NCBI GenBank assembly: GCA_023205875.1
Contig: CP060763.1
Location: 62,001 to 126,000, forward strand
Reading direction: 5' to 3'
Length of the DNA: 64,000 nt
Source of the DNA: Chloropicon primus
Taxonomy: Eukaryota
Positions within the stretch are counted from its first letter, which is position 1; each line of letters starts with the position of its first letter. The position numbers and the translations under genes are program-made. The notes beneath the pieces are model-generated. The model saw only the letters and a list, made by a program, of their open reading frames with translations, had not been told where the DNA came from and ran no database searches. This document shows positions 12,924 to 49,361 of the stretch, in pieces.

Positions 12924-12965
12924 GCTCTTCCTTCCTTCCTTCCTCGCTGGATGGAACCACAGTGA

Positions 12966-13066
12966 ACGACGCCGATGCCGATGCCGATGCCAATGAAGAT
13001 GATGATGAAGATGCCGATGAAGATGATGACGCTGGTGGCGATGCTGGTGGCGATGCTGGTGCCTGT
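12966..13066. repeat. Low-complexity GAT/GCCGAT/GGCGATGCTGGT micro-repeats upstream of BET5
   Basis: Directly visible tri-, hexa- and dodecanucleotide repeats. Confidence 0.7.
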
Positions 13067-14326: not shown

Positions 14327-14370
<44 letters not shown>

Positions 14371-14622
14371 TGTGACGTTGCTGCTTGCTGGTGACATGAA
14401 TTGAATCGAATTGCGTCGTGTTTCGTTGTGTGAAAGAAAAGTATGAGTCTTGCCGTGGTTGCTTGGTTGGGTTGCGGGTCAACCTGAAGGAAGGGAAGGG
14501 AGACAGAAGGTATACGAGGGAGTAGGATGAGTTGTGAGGGAAAGGGTGTCCTGAGGGCACCAGCGAGGACGAGGATGGGGAGGAAATCGAGGAATGGTCT
14601 GAAGCAGGAGGGACGAAGGACC

Positions 14623-17600: not shown

Positions 17601-20600
17601 TGGTAACATGAATTTCCGGATTCAGCCCTCTCAAGGCTCTGGGAGAGACGGGGGAAGTACTTACTTGACCTCTGGATCAGCCCAAGGTAGGGGTGGTGCT
17701 GGAGGCAGCGTCTTCATAGCGTCCGGTTCTGCTGCAGAAACGGCAGAGGCCGCTGGGGGTGACATTAACATCAACGCCGGGGATTCGCTAACAGCGAAAG
17801 ATAAGCTGGGTGCCCACGGTGGTCAGGTTGTCATCAGAAGTGGCCATTCCGCTGGAAACTCTGGCGGCGAAATAATAATCGTCTCTGGGAACACCACTGC
17901 AATGAACGAGGGGCAAGCAACTGACATTGATGGCGGATACACAAGAAGTGGAAACATCAACATCACGTCTAGTTATGTTGACAATGCATACACAGGGTCT
18001 GTCTCCATGACTACCGGGGATTCGCTTACTGGAATCTCTGGGGATGTGAAGATTGGTGCAGGCTCAGGTATGCAGAGTGGGGCTAATGTCACTATTTCTG
18101 CTGGAGGCGCCCACGACAATACTGCCAGTCCTGTTGCTGTACAATCTGGAACGAGCTACTACAAAGAGATGAGGGAGCTAGCTGATGTTGAGGCTGCACC
18201 AATGGCAGGATCTGTCCAGCTCGTCGGTGGAAGGGCAGCAAATGGCATTTATGGCCACGGAGGAAACGTTACAACTTCTGGCGGTCAAGGAGCATCCTAT
18301 GGAGGTCACGCCCATCTCATTGGTGGAAATGTCAATGATGGATCTGGTGCACACACGAGGTTGCACGGAGGCTCCTTGTTTCTTTCCTCAGGTTCCGGGA
18401 CATCTGGGAAAGTTCATTCCGGAAGCATTGAGATGAAAACATCGGATGGAGGAAGTGCTGGAGGAGCAGGTTATGTAAACATAACTACGGGGGTCTCCAA
18501 CAGCATGTTTAACTGCGCTGGGCAATACGGCGTGGAAGAATGCATCGGAGGAAATATTACGATGGCCTCTGGGGATAATTTGGCATCAGACGGGGCATTC
18601 CTGGTTCTCAATGCAGGTAGCACGAAAACCTTTTCAGCTCTGACTGAGAACACTGAGCGTGAAACGCCTATTGGTGGACCTATTCTAATGAATGCTGGGT
18701 CTGCATCCTTTGGAGTGGGAGGACAAATAAACATCACTGCAGGTTCTGGGTCTGCCCAGCCTGAGAGGGAAATATTTGGAACTAGGTATGGCGCAGATCA
18801 CAGCCTTCTTGACGAAGCAGGCAAAGTCGGCTACGGTGGTAATGTGACCATCCGAGGCGGAGCTTCTGCATATGATCACGGAGGCAGCGTCAACTTGGTT
18901 TCTGGTGAACCAGGACTTGGTGTTTACTCAACATCAGGAAATATTACCATGACTACTCCGGATGCCACAAACTCAAAGCCAGCTGGTGCAATTCCAGATG
19001 GACCTGACAAGGGTATTAGTGGTAGCATATTCATGAGGACAGGAGAGGGAAAGGAAAGCTCAGGGAATGTTTCAATTTTCACTGGAAATTCAACGGAAGA
19101 TAATACGGGCCATATTTTGCTTCACGGTGGATTTTCCACGTTTGGTGATGGAGGGAGTCTTAATTTCACGTCTGGGCACGGTGGCATAATCAACAATGGA
19201 ACAGACGCTGATGCAAGACTTGATGATGGGGATATCAATCTCGAGGCAGGAAGAAGAGTTGTCATGACAGGTGATTTTGCTGTCGAATTGTATGGTGGAA
19301 ATGCCCTCGATGACACCTACGTAGAATCAACGGAGGAATCAACCCTGAAATATGGTTCAGTAAATGGCAAATACAACGGTGGATATTTGTACTTCCAAGG
19401 AGGAGACTCCGAGCATGCATCCGGGGGAAACGTCACAATGAGGGGTGGAAAGGGTTTGAGCAACAATGGAGGTGATATTAGCCTGGTTACAGGTGTTGGA
19501 AACTCTACAACACAAGTGGAGACCTACAATTCTGAGTACTACTCCCATGACCCAAGTCTTTATAGCAGAGCCAATTCTAACTATGAACACGACAGAGATG
19601 GTCATATTAGAGCAACAAATAACCTTGCATCAAGTGGAGAGTTGAGTCTTGCCACAGCTGATGCCTTTCCTCATATGAACAGAAACTTTTCATCCGGAGT
19701 AAGTGGATCAGCATCACTTCGAACTGGTGCCTCAGGAAGGGGTGATTCTGGGTCACTCACATTTTCAACTGGGGATGCAGTCATGGGTGTTGGTGGAAAC
19801 ATCTCCTTCAGCATCGGCAATGGAACTGATTCAACTGGATATGGAGAATCGGCTGGAAAAGACGGCGGTAGTTTTGTTGTTCGTGCGGGCACTGGCACTG
19901 CTGCAGATCAAAGTGGAGGCCATGTCAATCTCTCTGCGGGATTGGGCGTCTCCTCTTCAAACTCTACGACAAGGGGAGGAAATGTTGTGATAGCTGGGGG
20001 TAATGCAGAAGCTGCAAAGGAGAGGGCGCTCCTGATGTCCCAGGAACCATGGCTTCCGTATGAACGTTTCATCAATGACAACTCAAGCATTGGATACCGA
20101 AGGAACAACGAGAGTCACTCATCTCATGGAAACGAAGATGGCGGAAAAGTCCAACTTCGTGGTGGAGATTCTGACAGAGGTATTGGAGGATCAATTACGC
20201 TTACTGCTGGTGAAAGTCAAATGAACGATGGAGGGAACATCTTACTTACTGGAGGAAAATCAAATGGTGTCCTTGGCGTATGCAATGATTCTATGACTGA
20301 TTGTGACAATGGTGGACACATATATATCTCTGGAGGACAAGCTTTGGCTGCACCTGGAGGTAGCATTGCCCTCACCAGTGGGTTCAGCACATCCACATCT
20401 TCTGGTGACATCACGATAGCTACGCCCACATCTGGCTTTTACGGCATCAGTGGATCCCTCGAACTCCTCTCAGGAAACACAACTGGAGGCAATTCTGGAT
20501 CGTTCTCGTTTGAATCTGGCCAGGCTACAAATGGTGCTGGCGGGATCATTTCACTTAAAGTTGGCGCAGGTGACACAGGTGACGGTGGTAATGTTCTCAT

Positions 20601-23600
20601 CGCTGCAGGTGAGACCACCGATGCTGACTCCGCTGGTGGCAAGATTGCACTCACTGGTGGCATGGGTTCTGATGATTCATCTCCTCATGGTGGTGTTGGT
20701 GGAGACATCGTGTTGACTGGTGGCGAGGCCCTCGGTAATGATGATCAGCATGACGTGGGTGGTGACATCTACTTGTCTGGTGGTCAGGCAGCCTCTGCCC
20801 GCGGTGGTGATCTCGAATTCAACACTGGTTACAGTGAGTCCACCAACAGTGGTTCCATGAGATTGAGCACCGTTGACTCTGGTTCTTCTGGTGTGAGTGG
20901 ATCCATGTCTCTCAGGACGGGTAACACTACCTTAGGAGAGTCTGGTGCGATTGAGCTTGAGACTGGTGTTGGCACTGGAGGCTCTGGTGGCGACCTTCGT
21001 TTCAAGGTTGGTACCGGTAACTCTGGTGACGGTGGTGATATCCTGTTCAGGGCAGGTGAGACCACTGATGCTGACTCTGCTGGTGGCAAGATTGCACTTA
21101 GTGGAGGCAAGGGTTCTAGCAATTCCTCTGATCATGGTGGTGTTGGTGGAGACATCTTGTTGACTGGTGGTGAGGCCCTCGGCAATGATGACCAGCATGA
21201 CGTGGGTGGTGACATCTACTTGTCTGGTGGTCAGGCAGCCTCTGCCCGCGGTGGTGACATTGAATTCAACACTGGTTACAGTGAGTCCACCAACAGTGGC
21301 TCCATGAGATTGAGTACTGTGAATTCTGGTTCTTCTGGTGTGAGTGGATCCATGTCTCTCAGGACGGGTAACACTACCTTAGGAGAGTCTGGTGCGATTG
21401 CTCTTGAGACTGGTGTTGGCACTGGAGGCTCTGGTGGCGACCTTCGTTTCAAGGTTGGTACCGGTAACTCTGGTGACGGTGGTGATATCCTGTTCAGGGC
21501 AGGTGAGACCACCGATGCTGACTCTGCTGGTGGCAAGATTGCACTCACTGGTGGCGAAGGCTCAGATGGTCTGTCTGCGTATGGTGGTCGTGGTGGAGAA
21601 ATTATTGTGAATGGAGGCGAAGCGTTTGGACTCAATAGCGAAACCGATATTGGAGGCGACATCCATATTTCTGGTGGTCAAGCCTCCTCTGCCCGTGGTG
21701 GTGACATTGAGGTGAACACAGGATACAGTGAGTCCACCAACAGTGGCTCCATGAGGTTGAGCACTCAAGAATCGGGTTACACGGGTGTTAGTGGGAATAT
21801 CAGTTTAGCAACTGGGAACGCATATGATGGTGGGTCTGGCTTGATTGAGCTTGAGACTGGTGAGGGTATTGGAGGGTCTGGTGGCGACCTTCGTTTCAAG
21901 GTTGGTACCGGTTACTCTGGTGACGGTGGTGATATCCTGTTCAGGGCAGGTGAGACCACTGATGACGATTCTGCTGGTGGCAAGATTGCACTCACTGGAG
22001 GCAAGGGTTTGAGTCCTGTTGATTTTGGAGGTGTTGGTGGAGACATCTTGTTGACTGGTGGTGAAGCACTAGGACAATCATCAACTTCTGATTTTGGTGG
22101 TGACATCTACTTGTCTGGTGGTCAGGCAGCCTCTGCCCGCGGTGGTGACATTGAATTCAACACTGGTTACAGTGAGTCCACCAACAGTGGCTCCATGAGA
22201 TTGAGTACTGTGAATTCTGGTTCTTCTGGTGTGAGTGGATCCATGTCTCTCAGGACGGGCAACACCACAAACGGAGAGTCTGGTGCGATTTCTCTTGAGA
22301 CCGGTGAGGGTGTTGATGGTTCTGGTGGCGACCTTCGTTTCAAGGTTGGTACCGGAGATGCTGAGAAAGGTGGTGATATCCTTTTAAATGCTGGAGAATC
22401 TAGTGCTCCTTTTGATGGAGTGGGTGGAAACATCAATTTGACAGCAGGAGCTCAAACCAATAATGGCATGCTTTCTTACAAAAAAAGTGGCGGTGGAATC
22501 ATATCTTTAAGGGGAGGAGAAGCACATGCTACTGCGCCCGGAGAAGGTGTTGGTGGGGATATTTTCTTGACAGGAGGTCGAGCACAAATGGACCGTGGTG
22601 GTGACATTGCGATCAGCACTGGATACAGTAAGTCCACCAACAGTGGTTCCATGAGATTACGCACAGACGACGCTGGAAATCTTGGTGGTATCAGTGGCAA
22701 CATAAGTGTAAAAACTGGAAGCACGTCATCCGGAGAGTCTGGCTTGATTGAGCTTGAAACTGGTGAGGGTGTTGATGGTTCTGGTGGTGACCTTCGTTTC
22801 AAGGTTGGTACCGGTAACTCTGGTGACGGTGGTGATATCCTGTTCAGGGCAGGTGAGACCACCGATGCTGACTCCGCTGGTGGCAAGATTGCACTTAGTG
22901 GAGGCATGGGTTCTGATGATTCCACTCCTGATGGTGGTATGGGCGGTGACATCTTGTTGACTGGTGGCGAGGCCCGTGGCAGCTATAAACATAATGACGT
23001 GGGTGGCGACATCTACTTGTCTGGTGGTCAGGCAGCCTCTGCCCGCGGTGGTGACATTGAATTCAACACAGGATTCAGTGAGTCCACGGACAGTGGTTCC
23101 ATGAGATTGAGCACTGTCAACGCTGGTTCTTCTGGTGTGAGCGGCAACATAAGTGTCAAAACTGGAACCACGACATCCGGAGAGTCTGGTGTGATTGAGC
23201 TTGAGACTGGTGTTGGCAATGGAGGTTCTGGTGGCGACCTTCGTTTCAAGGTTGGTACCGGTAACTCTGGTGACGGTGGTGACATCCTGTTCAGGGCAGG
23301 TGAGACCACCGATGCTGACTCTGCTGGTGGCAAGATTGCACTTAGTGGAGGCAAGGGTTCTGATGATTCATCTCCTCATGGTGGTGTTGGTGGAGACATC
23401 TTGTTGACTGGTGGCGAGGCCCTCGGTAATGATGACCAGCATGACGTGGGTGGTGACATCTACTTGTCTGGTGGTCAGGCAGCCTCTGCCCGCGGTGGTG
23501 ACATTGAATTCAACACTGGTTACAGTCAATCCACGGACAGTGGTTCCATGAGATTGAGTACTGTGAATTCTGGTTCTTCTGGTGTGAGTGGATCCATGTC

Positions 23601-26600
23601 TCTCAGGACGGGTAACACCACATCAGGAGAGTCTGGCTTGATTGCTCTTGAGACTGGTGAGGGCGTTGATGGTTCTGGTGGCGACCTTCGTTTCAAGGTT
23701 GGTACCGGTAACTCTGGTGACGGTGGTGATATCCTGTTCAGGGCAGGTGAGACCACCGATGCTGACTCTGCTGGTGGCAAGATTGCACTTAGTGGAGGCA
23801 AGGGCTCTAGTGATCACACTTATCATGGTGGTGTTGGTGGAGACATCCTGTTGACTGGTGGTGAGGCCCTCGGCAATGATGACCAGCATGACGTGGGTGG
23901 TGACATCTACTTGTCTGGTGGTCAGGCAGCATCTGCCCGTGGTGGTGATATCGAATTCAACACTGGTTACAGTCAATCCACCAACAGTGGTTCCATGAGA
24001 TTGAGCACCGTTGACTCTGGTTTTTACGGTGTGAGCGGATCCATGTCTCTCAGGACGGGCAAGACCACATCTGGAGAGTCTGGTGCGATTGCTCTTGAGA
24101 CTGGTGAGGGTGTTGACGGTTCTGGTGGCGACCTTCGTTTCAAGGTTGGTACCGGTAACTCTGGTGACGGTGGTGACATCCTGTTCAGGGCAGGTGAGAC
24201 CACCGATGCTGACTCTGCTGGTGGCAAGATTGCACTTAGTGGAGGCAAGGGTTCTGATGATTCCTCCGCTCATGGTGGTGTTGGTGGAGACATCTTGTTG
24301 ACTGGTGGCGAGGCCCTCGGCAATGATGACCATCATGACGTGGGTGGTGACATCTACTTGTCTGGTGGTCAAGCAGCATCTGCCCGCGGTGGTGACATTG
24401 AATTCAACACAGGATACAGTGCGTCCACCGACAGTGGCTCGATGAGAATGAGCACCGTTGACTCTGGTTCTTCTGGTGTGAGTGGCAATATCAGTATAGC
24501 AACTGGCAAAACCACATCTGGAGAGTCTGGCTTGATTGTTCTTGAGACTGGTGAGGGTGTTGATGGTTCTGGTGGCGACCTTCGTTTCAAGGTTGGTACC
24601 GGTAACTCTGGTGACGGTGGTGATATCCTGTTCAGGGCAGGTGAGACCACTGATGCTGACTCCGCTGGTGGCAAGATTGCACTTAGTGGAGGCAAGGGAA
24701 CTGATGATTCCTCCGCTCATGGTGGTGTTGGTGGAGACATCCTGTTGACTGGTGGCCAGGCGCTCGGCTCTGATAATCAGACTGACGTTGGTGGTGACAT
24801 CTACTTGTCTGGTGGTCAAGCAGCATCTGCCCGCGGTGGTGACATTGAATTCAACACAGGATACAGTGCGTCCACCAACAGTGGCTCGATGAGAATGAGC
24901 ACCGTTGACTCTGGTTCTTCTGGTGTGAGTGGGTCCATGTCTCTCAGGACGGGCAAGACCACATCTGGAGAGTCTGGATTTATTGCTCTTGAGACTGGTG
25001 AGGGCGTTGATGGTTCTGGTGGCGACCTTCGTTTCAAGGTTGGTACCGGTAACTCTGGCCATGGCGGTGATATCCTTTTCAGGGCAGGTGAGACCACTGA
25101 TGCTGACTCTGCTGGAGGTAATATTGCACTCACTGGTGGCGAAGGCTCAGATGGTCTGTCTGCGTATGGTGGTCGTGGTGGAGAAATTATTGTGAATGGA
25201 GGCGAAGCGTTTGGACTCAATAGCGAAACCGATATTGGAGGCGACATCCATATTTCTGGTGGTCAAGCCTCCTCTGCCCGTGGTGGTGACATTGAGGTGA
25301 ACACAGGATACAGTGAGTCCACCAACAGTGGCTCCATGAGATTGAGCACCGTTGACTCTGGTTCCTCTGGTGTGAGTGGATCCATGTCTCTTAGGACGGG
25401 TAACACCACATCAGGAGAGTCTGGCTTGATTGCTCTTGAGACTGGTGAAGGTGTCGGAGGCTCTGGTGGCGATGTCCACGTTTCAGTTGGTGCTGGAGAC
25501 TTTGGAGATGGCGGTGAGATCAAGCTTACTGCAGGATCCACTGTCCACGATGGTTCCACTGGAGGAAAGATCACCCTCCACGCAGGAGCTGGCGAAAATG
25601 AAGAAGCTGGCCCCTTGGGCATCTCTGGTGGCGACATTGAGTTGATTGCCGGAGAAGCTTTTTACGGACTGGGTGGCACCAATGATTTTGGTGGTAATAT
25701 CCTTGTGTCTGGTGGTGAGTCTGAGATGGGCATTGGTGGCAACATAGAGTTGAAGAGTGGTTACGGTGTTGCCCAGACTAGTGGTCAAATCGACATCCAC
25801 ACGGCTGATGCTGGTTTGTCTGGTGTAAGTGGTCTTATGAGCATGAGCACCGGCAACACCACCAATGGCGATTCTGGCGTAGTCGATGTGAGCACAGGCA
25901 GTGCCATCAATGGTGCTGGAGGTCACATCGCTGCGAGCGTTGGAACAGGCAACAAGGGCAATGGAGGCGATGTGTATGTCCGTGCCGGTGAGACCACTGA
26001 TGCGGCATCTTCCGGCGGCAACATTAAGTTAGTCGGCGGCATGGGTAGCAGCACTGCTCACACCGGTGGCGGTGTTGGCGGCGACATCTTGTTGACCGGT
26101 GGCAAGGCCCTTGGCTCTAATGACCAGACTGACGTGGGTGGTGACATCTACTTGTCTGGTGGTCAAGCGTCCTCTGCCCGCGGCGGGGACGTTGAGGTGA
26201 GCACAGGATACAGTGAGTCCACGGACAGTGGCTCGATGAGAATGAGCACCGTTGACTCTGGTTCTTCTGGTGTGAGCGGATCCATGTCGCTCAGGACGGG
26301 CAACACCACATCAGGAGAGTCTGGCTTGATTGCTCTTGAGACTGGTAGAGGCAATGGAGGCTCTGGTGGTGATCTTCGTTTCAAGGTTGGTACCGGTAAC
26401 TTTGGTGACGGTGGTGATATCCTGTTCAGGGCAGGTGAGACCACCGATGCTGACTCCGCTGGTGGCAAGATTGCACTTAGTGGAGGCAAGGGAACTGATG
26501 ATTCCTCCTCTCATGGTGGTGTTGGTGGAGACATCTTGTTGACTGGTGGTGAGGCCCTCGGCAATGATAATCAGACTGACGTGGGTGGTGACATCTACTT

Positions 26601-29600
26601 GTCTGGTGGTCAAGCAGCATCTGCCCGCGGTGGTGACATTGAATTCAACACAGGATACAGTGCGTCCACCAACAGTGGTTCCGATGAGAATGAGCACCGT
26701 TGACTCTGGTTCTTCTGGTGTGAGTGGGTCCATGTCTCTCAGGACGGGCAAGACCACATCTGGAGAGTCTGGATTTATTGCTCTTGAGACTGGTGAGGGT
26801 GTCGGAGGTTCTGGTGGCGACCTTCGTTTCAAGGTTGGTACCGGTAACTCTGGCCATGGCGGTGATATCCTTTTCAGGGCAGGTGAGACCACCGATGCTG
26901 ACTCTGCTGGAGGTAATATTGCACTCACTGGTGGCGAAGGCTCAGATGGTCTGTCTGCGTATGGTGGTCGTGGTGGAGAAATTATTGTGAATGGAGGCGA
27001 AGCGTTTGGACTCAATAGCGAAACCGATATTGGAGGCGACATCCATATTTCTGGTGGTCAAGCCTCCTCTGCCCGTGGTGGTGACATTGAGGTGAGCACA
27101 GGATACAGTGAGTCCACCAACAGTGGCTCCATGAGATTGAGCACCGTTGACTCTGGTTCCTCTGGTGTGAGCGGATCCATGTCCCTTTACACGGGCAAGA
27201 CCACTGCCGGCACGTCTGGCTTGATTGAGCTTGAGACTGGTGAAGGTGTCGGAGGCTCTGGTGGCGATGTCCACGTTTCAGTTGGTGCTGGAGACTTTGG
27301 AGATGGCGGTGAGATCAAGCTTACTGCAGGATCCACTGTCCACGATGGTTCCACTGGAGGAAAGATCACCCTCCACGCAGGAGCTGGCGAGAATGAAGAA
27401 GCTGGCCCCTTGGGCATCTCTGGTGGCGACATTGAGTTGATTGCCGGAGAAGCTTTTTACGGACTGGGTGGCACCAATGATTTTGGTGGTAATATCCTTG
27501 TGTCTGGTGGTGAGTCTGAGATGGGCATTGGTGGCAACATAGAGTTGAAGAGTGGTTACGGTGTTGCCCAGACTAGTGGTCAAATCGACATCCACACGGC
27601 TGATGCTGGTTTGTCTGGTGTAAGTGGTCTTATGAGCATGAGCACCGGCAACACCACCAATGGCGATTCTGGCGTAGTCGATGTGAGCACAGGCAGTGCC
27701 ATCAATGGTGCTGGAGGTCACATCGCTGCGAGCGTTGGAACAGGCAACAAGGGCAATGGAGGCGATGTGTATGTCCGTGCCGGTGAGACCACTGATGCGG
27801 CATCTTCCGGCGGCAACATTAAGTTAGTCGGCGGCGCGGGTAGCAGCACTGCTCACACCGGTGGTGGTGTTGGCGGCGACATCTTGTTGACCGGTGGCGA
27901 GGCCCTTGGCTCTAATGACCAGACTGACGTGGGTGGTGATATCTACTTGTCTGGTGGTCAAGCGTCCTCTGCCCGCGGCGGGGACGTTGAGGTGAGCACA
28001 GGATACAGTGAGTCCACCAACAGTGGCTCCATGAGAATGAGCACCGTTGACTCTGGTTCTTCTGGTGTGAGCGGATCCATGTCGCTCAGGACGGGCAAGA
28101 CCACATCAGGAGAGTCTGGCTTGATTGAGCTTGAGACTGGTGAAGGCGATGGAGGCTCTGGTGGTGATCTTCGTTTCAAGGTTGGTACCGGTAACTTTGG
28201 TGACGGTGGTGATATCCTGTTCAGGGCAGGTGAGACCACCGATGCTGACTCTGCTGGTGGCAAGATTGCCCTTAACGGTGGCAAGGGAATTGATGATTCC
28301 TCCTCTCATGGTGGTGTTGGTGGAGACATCTTGTTGACTGGTGGCGAGGCCCTTGGCAATGATGACCAGCATGACGTGGGTGGTGACATCTACTTGTCTG
28401 GTGGTCAGGCAGCCTCTGCCCGCGGTGGTGATATCGAATTCAACACTGGTTACAGTGAATCCACGGACAGTGGCTCCATGCGATTGAGCACCGTTGACTC
28501 TGGTTCTTCTGGTGTGAGCGGATCCATGTCCCTTTACACGGGCAAGACCACTGCCGGCACGTCTGGCTTGATTGAGCTTGAGTCTGGTGAAGGCGATGGA
28601 GGCTCTGGTGGTGACCTTCGTTTCAAGGTTGGTACCGGTAACTCTGGCCATGGCGGTGATATCCTGTTTAGGGCAGGTGAGACCACCGATGCTGACTCTG
28701 CTGGAGGTAATATTGCACTCACTGGTGGCGAAGGCTCAGATGGTCTGTCTGCGTATGGTGGTCGTGGTGGAGAAATAATTTTGACTGGTGGTGTTGCTGC
28801 TGGTCAAAATTCTGATACTGATACTGGAGGTGATATCTTGGTTGCTGGTGGTCAGGCAGCCTCTGCCCGCGGTGGTGATCTTGACATGCGCACTGGATAC
28901 AGTGAGTCCACGGACAGTGGTTCCATGAGATTGAGCACTGTCAACGCTGGTTCTTCTGGTGTGAGTGGATCCATGTCTCTCAGGACGGGGAAGACCACAT
29001 CTGGAGAGTCTGGTGTGATTGAGCTTGAGACTGGTGAGGGTGTTGACGGTTCTGGTGGCGACCTTCGTTTCAAGGTTGGTACCGGTAACTCTGGTGACGG
29101 TGGTGACATCCTGTTTAGGGCAGGTGAGACCACCGATGCTGACTCCGCTGGTGGCAAGATTGCACTTAGTGGAGGCATGGGTTCTGATGATTCCTCCTCT
29201 CATGGTGGAGTTGGTGGAGACATCTTGTTGACTGGTGGCGAGGCCCTCGGTAATGATGACCAGCATGACGTGGGTGGTGACATCTACTTGTCTGGTGGTC
29301 AGGCAGCCTCTGCCCGCGGTGGTGATCTCGAATTCAACACTGGTTACAGTGAGTCCACCAACAGTGGCTCCATGAGAATGAGCACCGTTGACTCTGGTTC
29401 TTCTGGTGTGAGTGGATCCATGTCTCTCAGGACGGGCAACACCACATCAGGAAAATCTGGCTTGATATCTGTTGAGACTGGTGAGGGTGTTGATGGTTCT
29501 GGTGGCGACCTTCGTTTCAAGGTTGGTACCGGTAACTCTGGTGACGGTGGTGACATCCTGTTTAGGGCAGGTGAGACCACCGATGCTGACTCTGCTGGTG

Positions 29601-32600
29601 GCAAGATTGCACTTAGTGGAGGCAAGGGCTCTGATGATTCCTCTGATCATGGTGGTGTTGGTGGAGACATCTTGCTGACTGGTGGCGAGGCCCTCGGCAA
29701 TGATGACCAGCATGACGTGGGTGGTGACATCTACTTGTCTGGTGGTCAGGCGTCCTCTGCCCGCGGTGGTGATCTCGAATTCAACACTGGTTACAGTGAA
29801 TCCACCAACAGTGGCTCCATGCGATTGACTACTGTGAATTCTGGTTCTTCTGGTGTGAGTGGCAATATCAGTATATCAACTGGCAACACCACATCAGGAG
29901 AGTCTGGATTTATTGCTCTTGAGACTGGTGAGGGCGTTGATGGTTCTGGTGGCGACCTTCGTTTCAAGGTTGGTACCGGTAACTTTGGTGACGGCGGTGA
30001 TATCCTGTTCAGGGCAGGTGAGACCACCGATGCTGACTCTGCTGGTGGCAAGATTGCACTTAGTGGAGGCAAGGGAACTGATGATTCCTCCGCTCATGGT
30101 GGTGTTGGTGGAGACATCTTGTTGACTGGTGGTGAGGCCCTCGGCAATGATGACCAGCATGACGTGGGTGGTGACATCTACTTGTCTGGTGGTCAGGCAG
30201 CCTCTGCCCGCGGTGGTGATATCGAATTCAAAACTGGTTACAGTGAATCCACCAACAGTGGCTCCATACGATTGAGCACCGTTGACTCTGGTTCTTCTGG
30301 TGTGAGTGGCAATATCAGTATATCAACTGGCAAAACCACATCTGGAGAGTCTGGTGCGATTGAGCTGGAGACTGGTGAGGGTGTTGACGGTTCTGGTGGT
30401 GACCTTCGTTTCAAGGTTGGTACCGGTAACTCTGATGACGGTGGTGATATCCTGTTCAGGGCAGGTGAGACCACTGATGCTGACTCTGCTGGTGGTATGA
30501 TTGAACTCATTGGCGGAAAGGGTTTTGACGACACTGGAGATTCCTCAAGCGGTTCTAGTGACGCAGAGCCATGGATCGAGGTTACTGATTTCTTTGACAT
30601 GTACTTTGGGACCTGTGACCACAATGTAGCTGGAAGCACAATGTTGTATGAGGATGACCCCCATGATGGTTGCACTTCTGCAGAATTCTGCTTGGACTAC
30701 TGTGCAACAAATTATCCGGCTACAACACATGTTGACTACTACTTGAAATGGAGTTTCTCTGATACTCAGTGTGGTTGCAGATGTTACGATGGATGCGCGT
30801 CTCACACTATCAAGCATAATCGAGCACTTGAGGTTTACCAAAGGAATCCGGACTACACATCAGGCCCAAGTCATGGTGGTCGTGGTGGTAAGATTCGGAT
30901 TGGAGGTGGTGAAGCTCGTGGATCCAACAACCAGACTGACGTGGGTGGTGACATCTACTTGTCTGGTGGTCAGGCAGCCTCTGCCCGCGGTGGTGACGTT
31001 GAGGTAAGCACTGGATACAGTGAGTCCACCAACAGTGGTTCCATGAGAATGAGCACCGTCGACTCTGGTTTTTACGGTGTGAGTGGATCCATGTCTCTCA
31101 GGACGGGCAACACCACAAACGGAGAGTCTGGCTTGATTGAGCTTGAGACTGGTGAGGGTGTCGGAGGCTCTGGTGGCGACCTTCGTTTCAAGGTTGGTAC
31201 CGGTAACTCTGGTGACGGTGGTGATGTTCTTATTGCTGCCGGTGAGACCACATCCAATTCTGCTGTCGGAGGTAGAGTTTCTGTGGTTTCTGGTGCTGCT
31301 TCTGATGGAGCTGGTGGAGACATTTCTCTGAGAGTTGGTCTTGGAAATAGTGGCAAAGGTGGTGATGTTCTTATTGCTGCTGGAGAGACCACTGATGACG
31401 ACTCTGCTGGTGGCAAGATTGCACTCACTGGAGGCAAGGGCTCTGATGATTCCTCTGATCATGGTGGTGTTGGTGGAGACATCTTGTTGACTGGTGGCGA
31501 GGCCCTCGGCAATGATGACCAGCATGACGTGGGTGGTGACATCTACTTGTCTGGTGGTCAGGCAGCCTCTGCCCGCGGCGGTGACATTCATTTGTCTGGA
31601 GGTCAAGGTGCCCTTTCCCGCGGTGGTGATCTTGACATTCGCACTGGATACAGTGAGTCCACCAACAGTGGCTCCATGAGATTGAGCACCGTTGACTCTG
31701 GTTCTTCTGGTGTGAGTGGATCCATGTCTCTCAGGACGGGTAACACCACATCAGGAGAGTCTGGTGCGATTGCTCTTGAGACTGGTCAAGGTGATGGAGG
31801 TTCTGGTGGCGACCTTCGTTTCAAGGTTGGTACCGGTAATTCTGGTGACGGTGGTGACATCCTGTTTAGGGCAGGTGAGACCACCGATGCTGACTCTGCT
31901 GGTGGCAAGATTGCACTTAGTGGAGGCAAGGGTTCTGATGATTCCTCCGCTCATGGTGGTGTTGGTGGAGACATCTTGTTGACTGGTGGTGAGGCCCTCG
32001 GCAATGATGACCAGCATGACGTGGGTGGCGACATCTACTTGTCTGGTGGTCAGGCGTCCTCTGCCCGCGGTGGTGACATTGAATTCAACACAGGATACAG
32101 TCAATCCACGGACAGTGGTTCCATGCGATTGAGCACCGTTGACTCTGGTTCTTCTGGTGTGAGTGGATCCATGTCTCTCAGAACGGGCAACACCACAAAC
32201 GGAGAGTCTGGTGTGATTGAGCTTGAGACTGGTGAGGGCGTTGATGGTTCTGGTGGCGACCTTCGTTTCAAGGTTGGTACCGGTAACTCTGGTGACGGTG
32301 GTGACATCCTGTTCAGGGCAGGTGAGACCACTGATGCTGACTCTGCTGGTGGCAAGATTGCACTTAGTGGAGGCAAGGGAACTGATGATTCATCTCCTCA
32401 TGGTGGAGTTGGTGGAGACATCTTGTTGACTGGTGGCGAGGCCCTCGGCAATGATGACCAGCATGACGTGGGTGGCGACATCTACTTGTCTGGTGGTCAA
32501 GCAGCATCTGCCCGCGGTGGTGATATCGAATTCAACACTGGTTACAGTGAGTCCACCAACAGTGGCTCCATGCGATTGAGCACCGTTGACTCTGGTTCTT

Positions 32601-35600
32601 CTGGTGTGAGTGGATCCATGTCTCTCAGGACGGGCAACACCACATCAGGAAAATCTGGCTTGGTATCTGTTGAGACTGGTGAGGGTGTTGATGGTTCTGG
32701 TGGCGACCTTCGTTTCAAGGTTGGTACCGGTAACTCTGGTGACGGTGGTGACATCCTGTTCAGGGCAGGTGAGACCACCGATGCTGACTCTGCTGGTGGC
32801 AAGATTGCACTTAGTGGAGGCATGGGTTCTGATGATTCCTCCTCTCATGGTGGTGTTGGTGGAGACATCTTGTTGACTGGTGGTGAGGCCCTCGGCAATG
32901 ATAATCAGACTGACGTGGGTGGCGACATCTACTTGTCTGGTGGTCAAGCAGCATCTGCCCGCGGTGGTGATATCGAATTCAACACTGGTTACAGTGAGTC
33001 CACCAACAGTGGTTCCATGAGATTGAGCACCGTTGACTCTGGTTTTTACGGTGTGAGCGGATCCATGTCTCTCAGGACGGGCAAGAGTACAAACGGAGAG
33101 TCTGGCTTGATTGAGCTTGAGACTGGTGAGGGTGTCGGAGGTTCTGGTGGTGACCTTCGTTTCAAGGTTGGTACCGGTAACTCTGGTGACGGTGGTGATG
33201 TTCTTATTGCTGCCGGTGAGACCACATCCAATTCTGCTGTCGGAGGTAGAGTTTCTGTGGTTTCTGGTGCTGCTTCTGATGGAGCTGGTGGAGACATTTC
33301 TCTGAGAGTTGGTCTTGGAAATAGTGGCAAAGGTGGTGATGTTCTTATTGCTGCTGGAGAGACTACGGATTCAGATTCCACAGGAGGTAACGTCGTTCTT
33401 GAAGGAGGAATGGGAAGCAGTGACGATGGAGTAGGAGGTGGAGTTGGTGGCGACCTCTCCTTTACAGGTGGTGACGCTCTTGGTGCTGCTGGTGCTTCTG
33501 ATGATGGTGGCGACATATCATTGACTGGAGGTCAAGCAGCTGCAGCCAAGGGTGGTTCCATTTCAATCATGAGTGGATATAGTCAATCTTCTACAAGTGG
33601 TGGAATTTTGATTGGAACTGACAATGCTGGCGTGTCTGGTGTGAGTGGATCCATGTCCCTATCGACAGGAAATGCTACTGCTGGAATGTCGGGCAAGATT
33701 GAGATTGAGACCGGTGAGGGTGTTGGAGGCTCTGGTGGCGACATTAGCTTCGCTGTTGGCACTGGTAATCTCGGTGATGGTGGTGGAGTGTACGTGACTG
33801 CTGGAGAGTCCACAGACTCTCGCAGTCAGGGTGGCAATATCACTATGACAGCTGGCCGCGGATCAGGTAACAGTGTGACCGGAGGTGACATTGTGCTGAC
33901 TGCCGGTGAGTCTCATAATGAAAACTCTTCTGCAGATCAAAGCGAGATGTATGGCGGATCTGTTTACATTCAGAGTGGACACAGCACTGGAATCACGAGC
34001 GGTGACGTTAGTATCAGCACAGACAACGCAGGCGTTTCCGGTGTGAGCGGATCCATGTCCCTTTACACGGGCAAGACCACTGCCGGCACGTCTGGCTTGA
34101 TTGAGCTTGAGACTGGTGAAGGTGTCGGAGGCTCTGGTGGCGATGTCCACGTTTCAGTTGGTGCTGGAGACTTTGGAGATGGCGGTGAGATCAAGCTTAC
34201 TGCAGGATCCACTGTCCACGATGGTTCCACTGGAGGAAAGATCACCCTCCACGCAGGAGCTGGCGAGAATGAAGAAGCTGGCCCCTTGGGCATCTCTGGT
34301 GGCGACATTGAGTTGATTGCCGGAGAAGCTTTTTACGGACTGGGTGGCACCAATGATTTTGGTGGTAATATCCTTGTGTCTGGTGGTGAGTCTGAGATGG
34401 GCATTGGTGGCAACATAGAGTTGAAGAGTGGTTACGGTGTTGCCCAGACTAGTGGTCAAATCGACATCCACACGGCTGATGCTGGTTTGTCTGGTGTAAG
34501 TGGTCTTATGAGCATGAGCACCGGCAACACCACCAATGGAGATTCTGGCGTAGTCGATGTGAGCACAGGCAGTGCCATCAATGGTGCTGGAGGTCACATC
34601 GCTGCGAGCGTTGGAACAGGCAACAAGGGCAATGGAGGCGATGTGTATGTCCGTGCCGGTGAGACCACTGATGCGGCATCTTCCGGCGGCAACATTAAGT
34701 TAGTCGGCGGCATGGGTAGCAGCACTGCTCACACCGGTGGCGGTGTTGGCGGCGACATCTTGTTGACCGGTGGCGAGGCCCTTGGCTCTAATGACCAGAC
34801 TGACGTGGGTGGTGATATCTACTTGTCTGGTGGTCAAGCCTCCACTGCCCGCGGCGGGGACGTTGAAGTGAGCACAGGATACAGTGAGTCCACCAACAGT
34901 GGCTCCATGAGATTGAGCACCGTTGACTCTGGTTCCTCTGGTGTGAGCGGATCCATGTCCCTTTACACGGGCAAGACCACTGCCGGCACGTCTGGCTTGA
35001 TTGAGCTTGAGACTGGTGAAGGTGTCGGAGGCTCTGGTGGCGATGTCCACGTTTCAGTTGGTGCTGGAGACTTTGGAGATGGCGGTGAGATCAAGCTTAC
35101 TGCAGGATCCACTGTCCACGATGGTTCCACTGGAGGAAAGATCACCCTCCACGCAGGAGCTGGCGAGAATGAAGAAGCTGGCCCCTTGGGCATCTCTGGT
35201 GGCGACATTGAGTTGATTGCCGGAGAAGCTTTTTACGGACTGGGTGGCACCAATGATTTTGGTGGTAATATCCTTGTGTCTGGTGGTGAGTCTGAGATGG
35301 GCATTGGTGGCAACATAGAGTTGAAGAGTGGTTACGGTGTTGCCCAGACTAGTGGTCAAATCGACATCCACACGGCTGATGCTGGTTTGTCTGGTGTAAG
35401 TGGTCTTATGAGCATGAGCACCGGCAACACCACCAATGGCGATTCTGGCGTAGTCGATGTGAGCACAGGCAGTGCCATCAATGGTGCTGGAGGTCACATC
35501 GCTGCGAGCGTTGGAACAGGCAACAAGGGCAATGGAGGCGATGTGTATGTCCGTGCCGGTGAGACCACTGATGCGGCATCTTCCGGCGGCAACATTAAGT

Positions 35601-38600
35601 TAGTCGGCGGCATGGGTAGCAGCACTGCTCACACCGGTGGCGGTGTTGGCGGCGACATCTTGTTGACCGGTGGCGAGGCCCTTGGCTCTAATGACCAGAC
35701 TGACGTGGGTGGTGATATCTACTTGTCTGGTGGTCAAGCCTCCACTGCCCGCGGCGGGGACGTTGAAGTGAGCACAGGATACAGTGAGTCCACCAACAGT
35801 GGCTCCATGAGATTGAGCACCGTTGACTCTGGTTCTTCTGGTGTGAGCGGATCCATGTCTCTCAGGACGGGCGACACCACATCAGGAGAGTCTGGCTTGA
35901 TTGAGCTTGAGACTGGTGAGGGTGTTGATGGTTCTGGTGGTGACCTTCGTTTCAAGGTTGGTACCGGTAACTCTGGTGACGGTGGTGACATCCTGTTCAG
36001 GGCAGGTGAGACCACCGATGCTGACTCTGCTGGTGGCAAGATTGCACTTAGTGGAGGCAAGGGCTCTAGTGATCACACTTATCATGGTGGAGTTGGTGGA
36101 GACATCTTGTTGACTGGTGGTGAGGCCCTCGGCAATGATGACCAGCATGACGTGGGTGGTGACATCTACTTGTCTGGTGGTCAGGCGTCCTCTGCCCGCG
36201 GTGGTGATATCGAATTCAAAACTGGTTACAGTGAGTCCACCAACAGTGGCTCCATGAGATTGAGCACCGTTGATTCTGGTTCTTCTGGTGTGAGCGGATC
36301 CATGTCTCTCAGGACGGGCGGCACCACATCAGGAGAGTCTGGTGCGATTGAACTTAACACTGGTGAGGGTGTTGATGGTTCTGGTGGTGACCTTCGTTTC
36401 AAGGTTGGTACCGGTAACTCTGGTGACGGTGGTGATATCTTGTTCAGGGCAGGTGAGACCACCGATGCTGACTCTGCTGGTGGCAAGATTGCACTTAGTG
36501 GAGGCAAGGGCTCTAGTGATCACACTTATCATGGTGGAGTTGGTGGAGACATCTTGTTGACTGGTGGTGAGGCCCTCGGCAATGATGACCAGCATGACGT
36601 GGGTGGTGACATCTACTTGTCTGGTGGTCAGGCAGCCTCTGCCCGCGGTGGTGATATCGAATTCAAAACTGGTTACAGTGAGTCCACCAACAGTGGCTCC
36701 ATGAGAATGAGCACCGTTGACTCTGGTTCTTCTGGTGTGAGCGGATCCATGTCTCTCAGGACGGGCAACACCTCATCAGGAGAGTCTGGTGCGATTGAAC
36801 TTGAGACTGGTGAGGGTGTTGACGGTTCTGGTGGCGACCTTCGTTTCAAGGTTGGTACCGGTAACTCTGGTGACGGTGGTGACATCCTGTTCAGGGCAGG
36901 TGAGACCACGGATGCTAGACTCTGCTGGTGGCAAGATTGCACTTAGTGGAGGCAAGGGTTCTGATGAGTCCTCCTCTCATGGTGGTGTTGGTGGAGACAT
37001 CTTGTTGACTGGTGGCGAGGCCCTCGGCAATGATGACCAGCATGACGTGGGTGGTGACATCTACTTGTCTGGTGGTCAAGCAGCCTCTGCCCGCGGTGGT
37101 GACATTGAATTCAACACAGGATACAGTCAATCCACGGACAGTGGTTCCATGAGATTGAGCACCGTTGACTCTGGTTCTTCTGGTGTGAGCGGATCCATGT
37201 CTCTCAGGACGGGCAACACCACATCAGGAGAGTCTGGTGCGATTGAGCTTGAGACTGGTGAGGGTGTTGACGGTTCTGGTGGTGACCTTCGTTTCAAGGT
37301 TGGTACCGGTAACTCTGGTGACGGTGGTGACATCCTGTTCAGGGCAGGTGAGACCACCGATGCTGACTCTGCTGGTGGCAAGATTGCACTTAGTGGAGGC
37401 AAGGGTTCTGATGATTCCTCCTCTCATGGTGGAGTTGGTGGAGACATCTTGTTGACTGGTGGCGAGGCCCTCGGCAATGATGACCAGCATGACGTGGGTG
37501 GTGACATCTACTTGTCTGGTGGTCAGGCGTCCTCTGCCCGCGGTGGTGATATCGAATTCAACACAGGATACAGTCAATCCACGGACAGTGGTTCCATGCG
37601 ATTGAGCACCGTTGACTCTGGTTCCTCTGGTGTGAGTGGCAATATCAGTATATCAACTGGCAACACCACATCAGGAGAGTCTGGCTTAATTGAGCTTGAG
37701 ACTGGTGAGGGTGTTGATGGTTCTGGTGGTGACCTTCGTTTCAAGGTTGGTACCGGTAACTCTGGTGACGGTGGTGACATCCTGTTCAGGGCAGGTGAGA
37801 CCACCGATGCTGACTCTGCTGGTGGCAAGATTGCACTTAGTGGAGGCAAGGGCTCTAGTGATCACACTTATCATGGTGGTGTTGGTGGAGACATCTTGTT
37901 GACTGGTGGCGAGGCCCTTGGCAATGATGACCAGCATGACGTTGGTGGTGACATCTACTTGTCTGGTGGTCAGGCGTCCTCTGCCCGCGGTGGTGACATT
38001 GAATTCAACACAGGATACAGTGAGTCCACGGACAGTGGCTCCATGCGATTGAGCACCGTTGACTCTGGTTCTTCTGGTGTGAGTGGCAATATCAGTATAT
38101 CAACTGGCAACACCACATCAGGAGAGTCTGGTGCGATTGAGCTTGAGACTGGTGAGGGTGTTGATGGTTCTGGTGGTGACCTTCGTTTCAAGGTTGGTAC
38201 CGGTAACTCTGGTGACGGTGGTGACATCCTGTTCAGGGCAGGTGAGACCACCGATGCTGACTCTGCTGGTGGCAAGATTGCACTTAGTGGAGGCAAGGGC
38301 TCTAGTAATCACACTTATCGTGGTGGTGTTGGTGGAGACATCTTGTTGACTGGTGGCGAGGCCCTCGGCAATGATGATCAGCATGACGTTGGTGGTGACA
38401 TCTACTTGTCTGGTGGTCAGGCACCCTCTGCCCGCGGTGGTGATATCGAATTCAAAACTGGTTACAGTGAGTCCACCAACAGTGGTTCCATGAGATTGAG
38501 CACCGTTGACTCTGGTTCTTCTGGTGTGAGTGGATCTATGTCTCTCAGGACGGGTAACACCACATCAGGAGAGTCTGGTGCGATTGCTCTTGAGACTGGT

Positions 38601-41600
38601 GAGGGTGTTGACGGTTCTGGTGGTGACCTTCGTTTCAAGGTTGGTACCGGTAACTCTGGTGACGGTGGTGACATCCTGTTCAGGGCAGGTGAGACCACGG
38701 ATACGGACTCTGCTGGTGGCAAGATTGCACTTAGTGGAGGCAAGGGCTCTAGTAATCACACTTATCATGGTGGAGTTGGTGGAGACATCTTGTTGACCGG
38801 TGGCGAGGCCCTCGGTAATGATGACCAGCATGACGTGGGTGGTGACATCTACTTGTCTGGTGGTCAGGCAGCCTCTGCCCGCGGTGGTGATCTCGAATTC
38901 AACACAGGATACAGTCAATCCACGGACAGTGGCTCCATGAGAATGAGCACCGTCGACTCTGGTTTTTATGGTGTGAGTGGATCCATGTCTTTCCGGACGG
39001 GCAAGACTACAAACGGAGAGTCTGGTGCGATTGAGCTTGAGACTGGTGAGGGTGTCGGAGGCTCTGGTGGCGACCTTCGTTTCAAGGTTGGTACCGGTAA
39101 CTCTGGTGACGGTGGTGATGTTCTTATTGCTGCCGGTGAGACCACATCCAATTCTGCTGTCGGAGGTAGAGTTTCTGTGGTTTCTGGTGCTGCTTCTGAT
39201 GGAGCTGGTGGAGACATTTCTCTGAGAGTTGGTCTTGGAAATCATGGCAAAGGTGGTGATGTTCTCATTGCTGCTGGAGAGACCACTGATGACGACTCCG
39301 CTGGTGGCAAGATTGCACTTAGTGGAGGCAAGGGCTCTAGTGATCACACTTATCATGGTGGTGTTGGTGGAGACATCTTGTTGACTGGTGGTGAGGCCCT
39401 CGGCAATGATGACCAGCATGACGTGGGTGGTGACATCTACTTGTCTGGTGGTCAGGCAGCCTCTGCCCGCGGCGGTGACATTCATTTGTCTGGAGGTCAA
39501 AGTGCCCTTTCCCGCGGTGGTGACATTGAATTCAAGACTGGATACAGTCAATCCACGGACAGTGGCTCCATGCGATTGAGCACCGTTGACTCTGGTTCTT
39601 CTGGTGTGAGTGGATCCATGTCTCTCAGGACGGGCAACACCTCATCAGGAGAGTCTGGCTTAATTGAGCTTGAGACTGGTCAAGGTGATGGAGGTTCTGG
39701 TGGTGACCTTCGTTTCAAGGTTGGTACCGGTAACTCTGGTGACGGTGGTGATATCCTGTTCAGGGCAGGTGAGACCACCGATGCTGACTCTGCTGGTGGC
39801 AAGATTGCACTTAGTGGAGGCAAGGGCTCTAGTGATCACACTTATCATGGTGGTGTTGGTGGAGACATCGTGTTGACTGGTGGTGAGGCCCTCGGTAATG
39901 ATGACCAGCATGACGTGGGTGGTGATATCTACTTGTCTGGAGGTCAGGCAGCCTCTGCCCGCGGTGGTGACATTGAATTCAAAACTGGTTACAGTGAGTC
40001 CACCAACAGTGGCTCCATGCGATTGAGCACCGTTGACTCTGGTTCTTCTGGTGTGAGTGGATCCATGTCTCTCAGGACGGGTAACACCACATCAGGAGAG
40101 TCTGGTGCGATTGAACTTGAGACTGGTGAGGGTGTTGATGGTTCTGGTGGTGACCTTCGTTTCAAGGTTGGTACCGGTAACTCTGGTGACGGTGGTGACA
40201 TCCTGTTCAGGGCAGGTGAGACCACCGATGCTGACTCTGCTGGTGGCAAGATTGCACTTAGTGGAGGCAAGGGTTCTGATGATTCCTCCGCTCATGGTGG
40301 TGTTGGTGGAGACATCTTGTTGACTGGTGGTGAGGCCCTCGGCAATGATGACCAGCATGACGTGGGTGGTGACATCTACTTGTCTGGTGGTCAGGCAGCC
40401 TCTGCCCGCGGTGGTGACATTGAATTCAAAACTGGTTACAGTGAGTCCACCAACAGTGGATCCATGCGATTGAGCACCGTTGACTCTGGTTCTTCTGGTG
40501 TGAGCGGATCCATGTCTCTTTGGACGGGTAACACCACATCAGGAGAGTCTGGCTTGATTGCTCTTGAGACTGGTGAGGGTGTTGATGGTTCTGGTGGTGA
40601 CCTTCGTTTCAAGGTTGGTACCGGTAACTCTGGTGACGGTGGTGACATCCTGTTCAGGGCAGGTGAGACCACCGATGCTGACTCTGCTGGTGGCAAGATT
40701 GCACTTAGTGGAGGCAAGGGTTCTGATGATTCCTCCTCTCATGGTGGTGTTGGTGGAGACATCGTGTTGACTGGTGGCGAGGCCCTCGGCAAGGATAATC
40801 ATACTGACGTTGGTGGTGACATCTACTTGTCTGGTGGTAAAGCGTCCTCTGCCCGCGGTGGTGATATCGAATTCAACACTGGTTACAGTGAGTCCACCAA
40901 CAGTGGTGCCATGCGATTGAGCACCGTTGACTCTGGTTTTTATGGTGTGAGCGGATCCATGTCTCTCAGGACGGGCAAGACTACAAACGGAGAGTCTGGC
41001 TTGATTGAGCTTGAGACTGGTGAGGGTGTCGGAGGCTCTGGTGGCGACCTTCGTTTCAAGGTTGGTACCGGTAACTCTGGTGACGGTGGTGATGTTCTTA
41101 TTGCTGCCGGTGAGACCACATCCAATTCTGCTGTCGGAGGTAGAGTTTCTGTGGTTTCTGGTGCTGCTTCTGATGGAGCTGGTGGAGACATTTCTCTGAG
41201 AGTTGGTCTTGGAAATAGTGGCAAAGGTGGTGATGTTCTTATTGCTGCTGGAGAGACTACGGATTCAGATTCCACAGGAGGTAACGTCGTTCTTGAAGGA
41301 GGAATGGGAAGCAGTGACGATGGAGTAGGAGGTGGAGTTGGTGGCGACCTCTCCTTTACAGGTGGTGACGCTCTTGGTGCTGCTGGTGCTTCTGATGATG
41401 GTGGCGACATATCATTGACTGGAGGTCAAGCAGCTGCAGCCAAGGGTGGTTCCATTTCAATCATGAGTGGATATAGTCAATCTTCTACAAGTGGTGGAAT
41501 TTTGATTGGAACTGACAATGCTGGCGTGTCTGGTGTGAGTGGATCCATGTCCCTATCGACAGGAAATGCTACTGCTGGAATGTCGGGCAAGATTGAGATT

Positions 41601-47600: not shown

Positions 47601-49361
47601 TTGAGCACCGTTGACTCTGGTTCTTCTGGTGTGAGTGGATCCATGTCTCTCAGGACGGGCAACACCACATCAGGAGAGTCTGGCTTGATTACTCTTGAGA
47701 CTGGTGAGGGTGTTGGAGGTTCTGGTGGCGACCTTCGTTTCAAGGTTGGTACCGGTAACTCTGGTGACGGTGGTGACATCCTGTTCAGGGCAGGTGAGAC
47801 TACCGATGCTGACTCTGCTGGTGGCAAGATTGCACTTAGTGGAGGCAAGGGCTCTAGTGATCACACTTATCATGGTGGTGTTGGTGGAGACATCGTGTTG
47901 ACTGGTGGTGAGGCCCTCGGCAATGATGATCAGCATGACGTTGGTGGTGACATCTACTTGTCTGGTGGTCAGGCAGCCTCTGCCCGCGGTGGGGATATGG
48001 AATTCAACACTGGATACAGTGAGTCCACCAACAGTGGCTCCATGCGATTGAACACTGTTGACTCTGGTTCTTCTGGTGTGAGTGGATCCATGTCTCTCAA
48101 GACAGGCAGCACGACATCAGGAGAGTCTGGCTTGATTGCTCTTGAGACTGGTGAGGGTGTTGACGGTTCTGGTGGTGACCTTCGTTTCAAGGTTGGTACC
48201 GGTAACTCTGGTGACGGTGGTGACATCCTGTTTAGGGCAGGTGAGACCACCGATGCTGACTCTGCTGGTGGTAAGATTGCACTTAGTGGAGGCAAGGGCT
48301 CTAGCAATTCCTCTGATCATGGTGGTGTTGGTGGAGACATCTTGTTGACTGGTGGTGAGGCCCTCGGCAATGATGACCAGCATGACGTGGGTGGTGATAT
48401 CTACTTGTCTGGTGGTCAGGCAGCCTCTGCCCGCGGTGGTGATATCGAATTCAACACAGGATACAGTGAGTCCACCAACAGTGGCTCCATGCGATTGAAC
48501 ACTGTTGACTCTGGTTCTTCTGGTGTGAGTGGATCCATGTCTCTCAAGACAGGCAGCACGACATCAGGAGAGTCTGGTGCGATTGAGCTTGAGACTGGTG
48601 GTGATTCGCTGATGAGTGGTGATGTTCACTTGTTTTCTGGAGATGTTTACGGTGGAAAGTCAGGTAATGTCGTTTTAGAAACTGGCGAATCTTCTGGCGG
48701 TAGAAGTGGAAGCATACAACTTCTTGCTGGAGTTAGTAGCTATGATAAGGGTGGTGATGTCGAGGTCAATGCAGGGCAATCAACATCAGACAGTGATGGT
48801 GCTGGCGGTGACATTTCCTTGACATCAGGCCGAGGACACAGGGGTGGAAAAGGTGGAGACTTAAATATTGTTGGAGGTATAAGTGGAGAGCTTTATGGAA
48901 GAGGAGGGGACGTTTCAATTGATGGTGGCCACAGTGAAAGTGGAGTGCATGGCCAAGTTCGAATTGGAACAAAGAGTGATGAAGTTTACATGGGTGAAAT
49001 TGACTACTCTTCAGATCTTTTCTTCTATGGGCACAGCTTTGCTTATGGAGCAATGAGTGTTGGAGAAGAAAGAGGTACACCGGTAACAGAGCACTTCTCG
49101 TACATGACGGAAGAAGTTACGATTGGTACTCTGTTGCCTTCTCAATCTGTATCCTTAGTTTTACAGGTTGATGGTGTGAGAGTGGAGGACAATGTGAGTG
49201 TAAACTTCAGTGGTAGACTTGGAGGAAGAATTATAATGTCTTCCTCTATCATTGCAGACGGCGAAGTCGAGATTAATCTGGTGCATTCAGGATCTCCACC
49301 TGTTCCCTATGACATACCTAGCGGTACCTTCAGGGTGAATGTGTTCCAGTATCGCGACTAG
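14623..49361 (+). CDS. Giant intronless putative secreted Gly/Ser/Asp/Thr-rich repeat protein, ~11,578 aa after removing two 1-nt insertions (~26683 and 36917)
   Basis: ORFs of 4058, 3466 and 4190 aa carry the same repeat and switch frame at single extra bases relative to the repeat consensus. (34739-2)/3 = 11579 codons. Signal peptide MAKSLLSGTYALTLCILVLLLSPTKVGA. Unique C-terminal domain ending TFRVNVFQYRD*. Confidence 0.88.
20340..48600 (+). repeat. Intragenic coding tandem repeat: 447-bp/149-aa basic unit, 900-bp modules and a ~7.9-kb higher-order duplication
   Basis: Offsets of homologous ORF-track entries: 447 (20945/21392; 37127/37574), 900 (34063/34963; 41957/42857), 1795 (24929/26724) and 7894 (33046/40940; 34063/41957). 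Confidence 0.97.

Follow-up and report, generated by a model that had tools for sequence, protein, structure and literature searches.

The 64,000-nucleotide stretch of Chloropicon primus DNA analysed here (the window) contains a giant glycine-rich repeat gene in which one loop of one repeat unit is enlarged by an insert carrying eight cysteines. This raises the questions of whether the insert is a genuine part of the protein, what it folds into, and what a single such domain would do on a repetitive fibre. Our reading, to which we give a probability of about 0.6, is that it is a real eight-cysteine domain, likely of PAN/apple-type fold, carried in a loop of a predicted secreted beta-helical fibre and likely acting as a surface-displayed binding module.

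Architecture and genomic setting of the repeat gene

The gene covers ~35 kb in all and is read in overlapping open reading frames of 4071, 3467 and 4206 codons. Its length of ~11,578 residues (about 11,600 aa) is counted without two single extra bases, at 26683 and 36917. The features used below are:

14623..49361 (+): giant glycine-rich repeat gene, ~11,578 codons, three overlapping open frames
14623..14706 (+): start methionine and hydrophobic leader, signal-peptide-like as judged by eye
17370..20604 (+): GGxIxLxxG strands in irregular arrangement; the long loops are non-repeated, and cysteine pairs close two of them
20605..48600 (+): regular array; each unit measures 447 bp (149 residues) and has nine strand motifs, spaced 15-21 residues
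26683 (+): extra base relative to the unit consensus (1 copy against 42), a frame shift upstream of the insert
30524..30871 (+): enlarged loop, with an acidic Ser/Gly linker (~30524-30571) followed by the eight-cysteine domain (~30572-30862)
36917 (+): second extra base relative to the unit consensus (1 copy against 34), a frame shift
48600..49064 (+): capping strands, not repeated; identity with the orthologue is 76-77% in the segment compared
49065..49361 (+): C-terminal head of 98 residues, 93 of them identical in the orthologue

The N-terminal ~900 residues (14623-17370) were without Pfam or PHROG match. The irregular shaft that follows has many unique loops with 10-45 extra residues; several are conserved in a homologue (P0002, see below), so that small loop cargo appears to be an old feature. 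The regular array is composed of 25% Gly and 22% Ser plus Thr. Three of its units contain a 45-bp duplication (31535-31629, 39429-39527 and 47007-47105) that adds exactly one 15-residue strand, and the shaft therefore seems to tolerate 10 strands per unit. Subtypes of the unit form higher-order blocks that recur along the array, for example at ~33242-35900 and 41100-43700.

The surrounding genes are eukaryotic housekeeping and plastid-type genes (C2/SMP, DUF179, kinesin, ankyrin and PsbP), and GT..AG introns of neighbouring genes at 11210-11365 (+) and 12610-12747 (-) are bridged by contigs of run X16. The region 11285-13285 comprises a short Rdx-family (selenoprotein T-like) gene and its neighbours. 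Tandem duplications of 160-182 bp, near-perfect (98-99% matches in most), lie in the flanks at 2462-2901, 6239-6594, 10144-10661 and 51298-52283; they are either recent duplications or assembly effects.

The enlarged loop is a genuine part of the array

In a pattern-based census of the loop at this unit position, 48 of the 49 loops measured 7-10 residues and one measured 120, about 110 residues above the normal length. The insert, in frame and between two strand motifs, occupies 116 codons flanked by GGKG and HGG; it lies 46% of the way along the coding sequence and 36% along the regular array. Its cysteine codons (30614, 30671, 30689, 30701, 30770, 30776, 30782 and 30794) give the spacing 19-6-4-23-2-2-4 and are the only ones among the 9,329 residues of the array (20605-48600). 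The first-pass annotation, made from the letters alone, had described one unit's loop as ~110 residues longer and its eight cysteines as standing in an otherwise cysteine-free array. Both observations are borne out, the second for the array proper: the less regular N-terminal part of the same protein has six further cysteines, including the two pairs that close loops (18514/18541 and 20281/20302). The probability that 116 codons of this base composition stay free of stops by chance is ~0.002, and the other five frames across the insert contain 2-13 stops.

A long array of near-identical units is the kind of place where assemblies fail, which would speak for a chimera. This explanation is refuted, and keeps practically no probability, since a single 492-base contig of DNA run X1 (30468-30959) crosses both junctions with 0 differences. 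The depth of this contig, 154.9 against 136.4-157.1 for the long contigs of the 5' flank in the same run, fits one insert copy per haploid genome, with the provisos that contig depth is not copy number, as the tool warns, and that X1 may be the source sample. Two marine metagenome runs, both from one other study, contain pieces of the insert at 99-100% identity, and one of them (X3) also covers both junctions; the right junction is moreover shared by an orthologue. The contig spanning both junctions without difference at single-copy-like depth shows that the insert is not an assembly artefact.

Run X3 contains almost the whole insert region (30380-31020) at 99-100% identity and none of the N-terminal part of the gene (10700-20600); these runs were picked by the presence of the insert sequence, and the pattern may reflect this selection or the presence of more than one insert copy in wild strains. 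A donor paralogue, for which the first-pass annotation had proposed a genome search, was not found within the 64-kb window.

Frame breaks and candidate splice sites

The two extra bases, one of them upstream of the insert, had been overlooked in the first-pass annotation. If the one at 26683 is real, translation stops at 26703, before the insert, and this strain's copy would be truncated ahead of the domain. However, each extra base is unique among the unit copies compared (43 and 35, respectively), and both are therefore likely to be long-read errors in the array, that at 26683 an assembly error.

These frameshifts bear on the idea that the insert is not displayed but is an intron-like stretch, retained or alternatively spliced, or else a remnant within a gene that is broken in this strain. 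Five in-frame GT donors share the AG acceptor at 30863 and could remove the insert; a GTATGA donor at 30495 and this CAG acceptor are among the candidate splice sites that flank it, and the only named orthologue is annotated as no more than a C-terminal piece of the protein. Nevertheless, the stop-free frame, the conservation of the domain across species (below), the uniqueness of the extra bases, as expected for long-read errors in a repeat, and the length of the insert (342-372 bases, whereas the two bridged introns of neighbouring genes measure 156 and 138) make this explanation improbable. No RNA run is among those listed as containing the insert. In run X16, which shares its sample with X1 and shows spliced joints in neighbouring genes, there is no contig over 14.0-20.6 kb and almost none of the insert's words, a gap in coverage that, by the tool's own note, carries no weight on expression.

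The same loop in Chloropicon roscoffensis

Searching protein representatives with the insert recovered the C-terminal fragment of an orthologue (P0006, E 7e-23), identical at 48 of 77 positions (~62%) and keeping all seven visible cysteines. P0006 starts within the domain and re-enters the shaft through the same HGGRGG, so that its right junction is that of the window. Its cluster has one named member, from Chloropicon roscoffensis, for which the annotation covers no more than 319 residues at the C-terminus. Two other matches of this search, the repeat proteins P0007 and P0008, lack the cysteine pattern and were rejected, as were two hits from collection scans (L001 and L002), chance CGCRC matches in frames that overlap other long open reading frames.

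In the orthologue, the domain occupies the same loop as in the window, but in the final unit, next to the C-terminal cap, instead of 36% into the array. The same domain in the same loop of both species shows, as far as these sequences can tell, that it entered the loop before the two species split. Nine of the listed orthologue cluster members (15 of 22) reach the last loop; it holds the domain in four of these fragments and is a plain 10-residue loop in five, a variation in presence that the first-pass annotation had proposed to look for. The same cap variants occur in both states (P0014 with the domain, P0015 without). Between the four copies of the domain there are differences at 3-9 of 80 residues, against 0 of 98 between the heads, although the orthologue contigs end inside a repeat and errors at contig ends may inflate the differences between copies. 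The pattern of presence and absence may reflect alleles shuffled by recombination, or the assembler's choice among several units. In either case, a fixed single knob at the midpoint, as the first-pass annotation had placed it, finds no support in these sequences: that position holds for the window assembly only, and the orthologue fragments put the domain beside the C-terminal cap.

A probable PAN-like core outside the defined families

The first-pass annotation had likened the cysteine spacing to WSC or PAN/apple modules and had proposed a family search. Pfam gave no family for the insert at E values up to 10, nor for P0006 at E 1, with HMMER filters that drop weak matches. Insert, repeat and head were without sequence match in PDB, PHROGs and GenBank phages, the head likewise in Pfam; a word-based protein search with the insert found nothing among proteins of 171-2000 and 1906-6068 residues; and neither insert nor repeat was found in viral contigs. 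In the ESM Atlas, a query of repeat plus insert came back blank. By features, the insert alone was closest to two unnamed clusters (0.94 and 0.93) and then to PAN-domain clusters (0.92 and 0.90; recognition 2321). The ten best atlas matches with a family all belong to the PAN clan, although the PAN matches share 147 and 123 features where true family members typically share 170.

Two AlphaFold models were compared. The first, from the single sequence, shows a-b3-b4-b5 at a mean pLDDT of 52.5, and the second, from five rows (four from the orthologue), has a mean of 54.8 and a strand-helix-strand-strand core (b2-a-b3-b4); neither has at confidence all five strands of the PAN/apple sheet, which surrounds one helix in the order b1-b2-a-b3-b4-b5. 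Both models are of low overall confidence, with the core of the second, residues 21-60, at 63-80. In the VIA comparison, the second model ranked the Sarcocystis lectin SML-2 first (Z 4.7, rmsd 2.1, 49 aligned). Seven of the 50 matches listed are PAN/apple-type, none reaching Z 5 and with defensin-like proteins tied with them; SML-2, kallikrein and NK1 are counted here as apple/PAN-type. The matches listed for the first model have no PAN row, Foldseek with the insert models gave no match at E 0.001, and WSC structures are absent from the fold matches listed, an absence that carries no weight against a WSC fold.

The helix CxxxC of the insert is CLDYC, in a predicted helix at 37-47, and CGCRC falls in a predicted strand. 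The helix CxxxC and CxC strand, joined by two bridges, form the core common to PAN and WSC domains (PMC9024836), and the insert has this arrangement of cysteines at the sequence level. It has neither the CGG motif nor the long L5 loop with two further bridges of WSC domains. The six-cysteine pattern of apple domains, with its core CX3CX5CX11C (PMC3261864), is also absent: after CX3C the next cysteine comes 23 residues on. PAN/apple and WSC Pfam profiles score nothing. Since its spacing matches only the shared helix-CxxxC/strand-CxC core, the insert is, on sequence criteria, a member of neither the WSC nor the canonical PAN/apple family. The resemblance claimed at first survives as a weakly supported PAN-like fold and not as a cysteine pattern. 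A PAN-type fold is probable, and the insert most likely works as PAN and WSC domains do, its small fold braced by disulfides and serving in recognition.

If the insert is instead a cysteine-stabilised alpha-beta module of the defensin kind, or has a new fold, it would be displayed in the same manner. Plant defensins and their kin make up about nine of the 50 VIA rows listed, four of them by title, and they recur in several Foldseek rows; a cysteine pattern that fits neither PAN nor WSC would also suit this option. It is nonetheless unlikely, as the domain has ~95 residues, twice a defensin, the top VIA row is an apple-type lectin, and the family-bearing atlas matches point to the PAN clan.

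Homologues that carry other cargo

The homologue P0002 is collinear with the non-repeated region of the window at 19408-20565 (42% over 391 columns). Four of its consecutive units carry one nine-cysteine insert and three Pfam kringles (E 1.6e-28), placed between two strand motifs in a loop two strands upstream of that in the window. Its sequence gives the strongest indication that folded domains can be accommodated in loops of this repeat, and in more than one of them. The first-pass annotation had proposed that the loop is exposed and accepts cargo, and this idea gains support both from the orthologue loop, found with and without the domain, and from the loop kringles of P0002. The nine-cysteine insert ahead of the kringles (residues ~395-505) is without Pfam match, another undescribed cargo domain. 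In a more distant repeat homologue, P0004, GG strands alternate with Peptidase_S74 chaperone domains, of which there are three, all internal; no Pfam domain was found in P0003 and P0005.

A structural role, in which the domain cross-links or spaces fibres or chains (by disulfides between chains, or as a node for folding or registration) and is not a receptor, should also be considered. Three cysteines on one strand (CxCxC) and the odd number in the P0002 insert leave room for inter-chain bridges, and a single copy in 28 kb of array would suit such a node. On the other hand, eight cysteines pair evenly within one chain, and the plain last loop in five of nine orthologue fragments (15 of 22 members listed) speaks against it. 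The domain also diverges faster between species than the head (62% against 95% identity) and varies among orthologue copies where the head does not, more like a recognition surface. Kringles, the cargo of P0002, are established binding modules. A structural role is thus rather unlikely.

A proposed mechanism of display

In the mechanism that we propose, every GGxIxLxxG motif would contribute one strand to the shaft, with the residues between motifs pointing outwards; the strands would stack into a beta-helical shaft, nine per unit being suited to a three-sided section. A domain with its ends close together could hang in such a loop and leave the shaft unbroken, its helix CxxxC bridging to two cysteines of the CxCxC strand as in PAN and WSC cores. 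Its candidate ligand would be a glycan or protein of the wall, of another cell, of a virus or of a grazer. Unequal recombination or gene conversion among near-identical units could move, keep or lose the cargo unit, so that its place along the fibre would not be fixed.

A trimer is suggested by the link to Peptidase_S74 and by the precedent of the TLP-12 fibril, in whose preprint Peptidase_S74 is tied to triple beta-helix folding (bioRxiv 10.1101/2025.09.30.679562). In the window protein, no Pfam match to a C-terminal Peptidase_S74/ICA domain was found in the last 306 residues or the other regions scanned. If the fibre is a trimer, the single insert would appear as three knobs arranged in a ring. 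By analogy, ~600 strands would correspond to a length of ~0.3 micrometres as a trimer, using the TLP-12 rise of 4.8 angstroms per strand, or ~0.1 micrometres as a single-chain helix.

Significance

The principle of placing domains in the loops of beta-solenoids and fibres is familiar from autotransporters and phage fibres. Such insertion has also been engineered (PMC7890094), and giant protist beta-helix fibrils have already been seen (bioRxiv 10.1101/2025.09.30.679562). A literature search, covering main texts in openly accessible journals, found no description of this protein, of algal fibres with loop cargo or of the cargo loops of this repeat, and the available main text of two Chloropicon genome papers has no mention that we could find of cell-wall or adhesion proteins. 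Such genes are under-annotated, as illustrated by the fragmentary record of the named orthologue.

More tentatively, and with the odds somewhat against it, picoalgae and other protists may possess a family of giant secreted Gly-rich beta-helix fibres that serve as modular display rods. Recognition domains would be plugged into particular loops (the eight-cysteine PAN-like domain in Chloropicon, kringles and a cysteine domain in a relative), and recombination would move, copy or drop the cargo unit between strains. Chloropicon, an abundant oceanic picoalga with cells of 2-4 micrometres, is described as lacking scales and flagella and as having a wall that is smooth and thin (PMC5656628). If the proposal is true, cargo shuffling would vary the cell surface that viruses, grazers or mating partners meet, and a 35-kb gene whose binding domains can be exchanged would be a candidate determinant, at the surface, of virus, grazer or mate recognition, as well as a natural model of a loop-display scaffold.

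Comparison with known systems

The nearest named feature clusters are those of PAN/apple domains (PF00024 and PF14295; TgMIC4, SML-2, the HGF N domain and MANEC). The insert resembles them as an extracellular cysteine domain of ~90 residues with a predicted strand-helix-strand-strand core and a CxxxC helix. It differs in having CxCxC instead of a cysteine five residues past the helix, as the consensus would have it (PMC3261864), in lacking a Pfam score, and in sitting inside a repeat loop and not strung in tandem. WSC domains (PF01822; yeast Wsc1, Kremen1) likewise have eight cysteines and a helix CxxxC followed by a CxC strand. In Wsc1, however, the cysteines at 27, 49, 53, 69, 71, 86, 90 and 98 are spaced 22-4-16-2-15-4-8, with a CGG motif and a long L5 loop (PMC9024836), whereas the insert has its own spacing, no CGG and no L5 cysteine pair.

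As for the whole fibre, the TLP-12 glycofibril and its candidate 20,000-residue alveolate proteins resemble the window protein in being giant eukaryotic Gly/Ser-rich repeats of short strands. TLP-12 is a trimeric beta-helical fibril, and Peptidase_S74/ICA occurs there and in P0004. It differs by its 12-residue repeat, compared with strands of 15-21 residues in 149-residue units in the window, and no loop cargo is described for it in the text available (bioRxiv 10.1101/2025.09.30.679562). Loop display itself is closest to BeSS, in which whole domains are inserted at the vertices of a beta-solenoid for display at set spacing (PMC7890094). BeSS is designed, small and apparently monomeric, whereas the window protein is natural, 11,600 residues long, and belongs to a repeat whose cargo varies between lineages.
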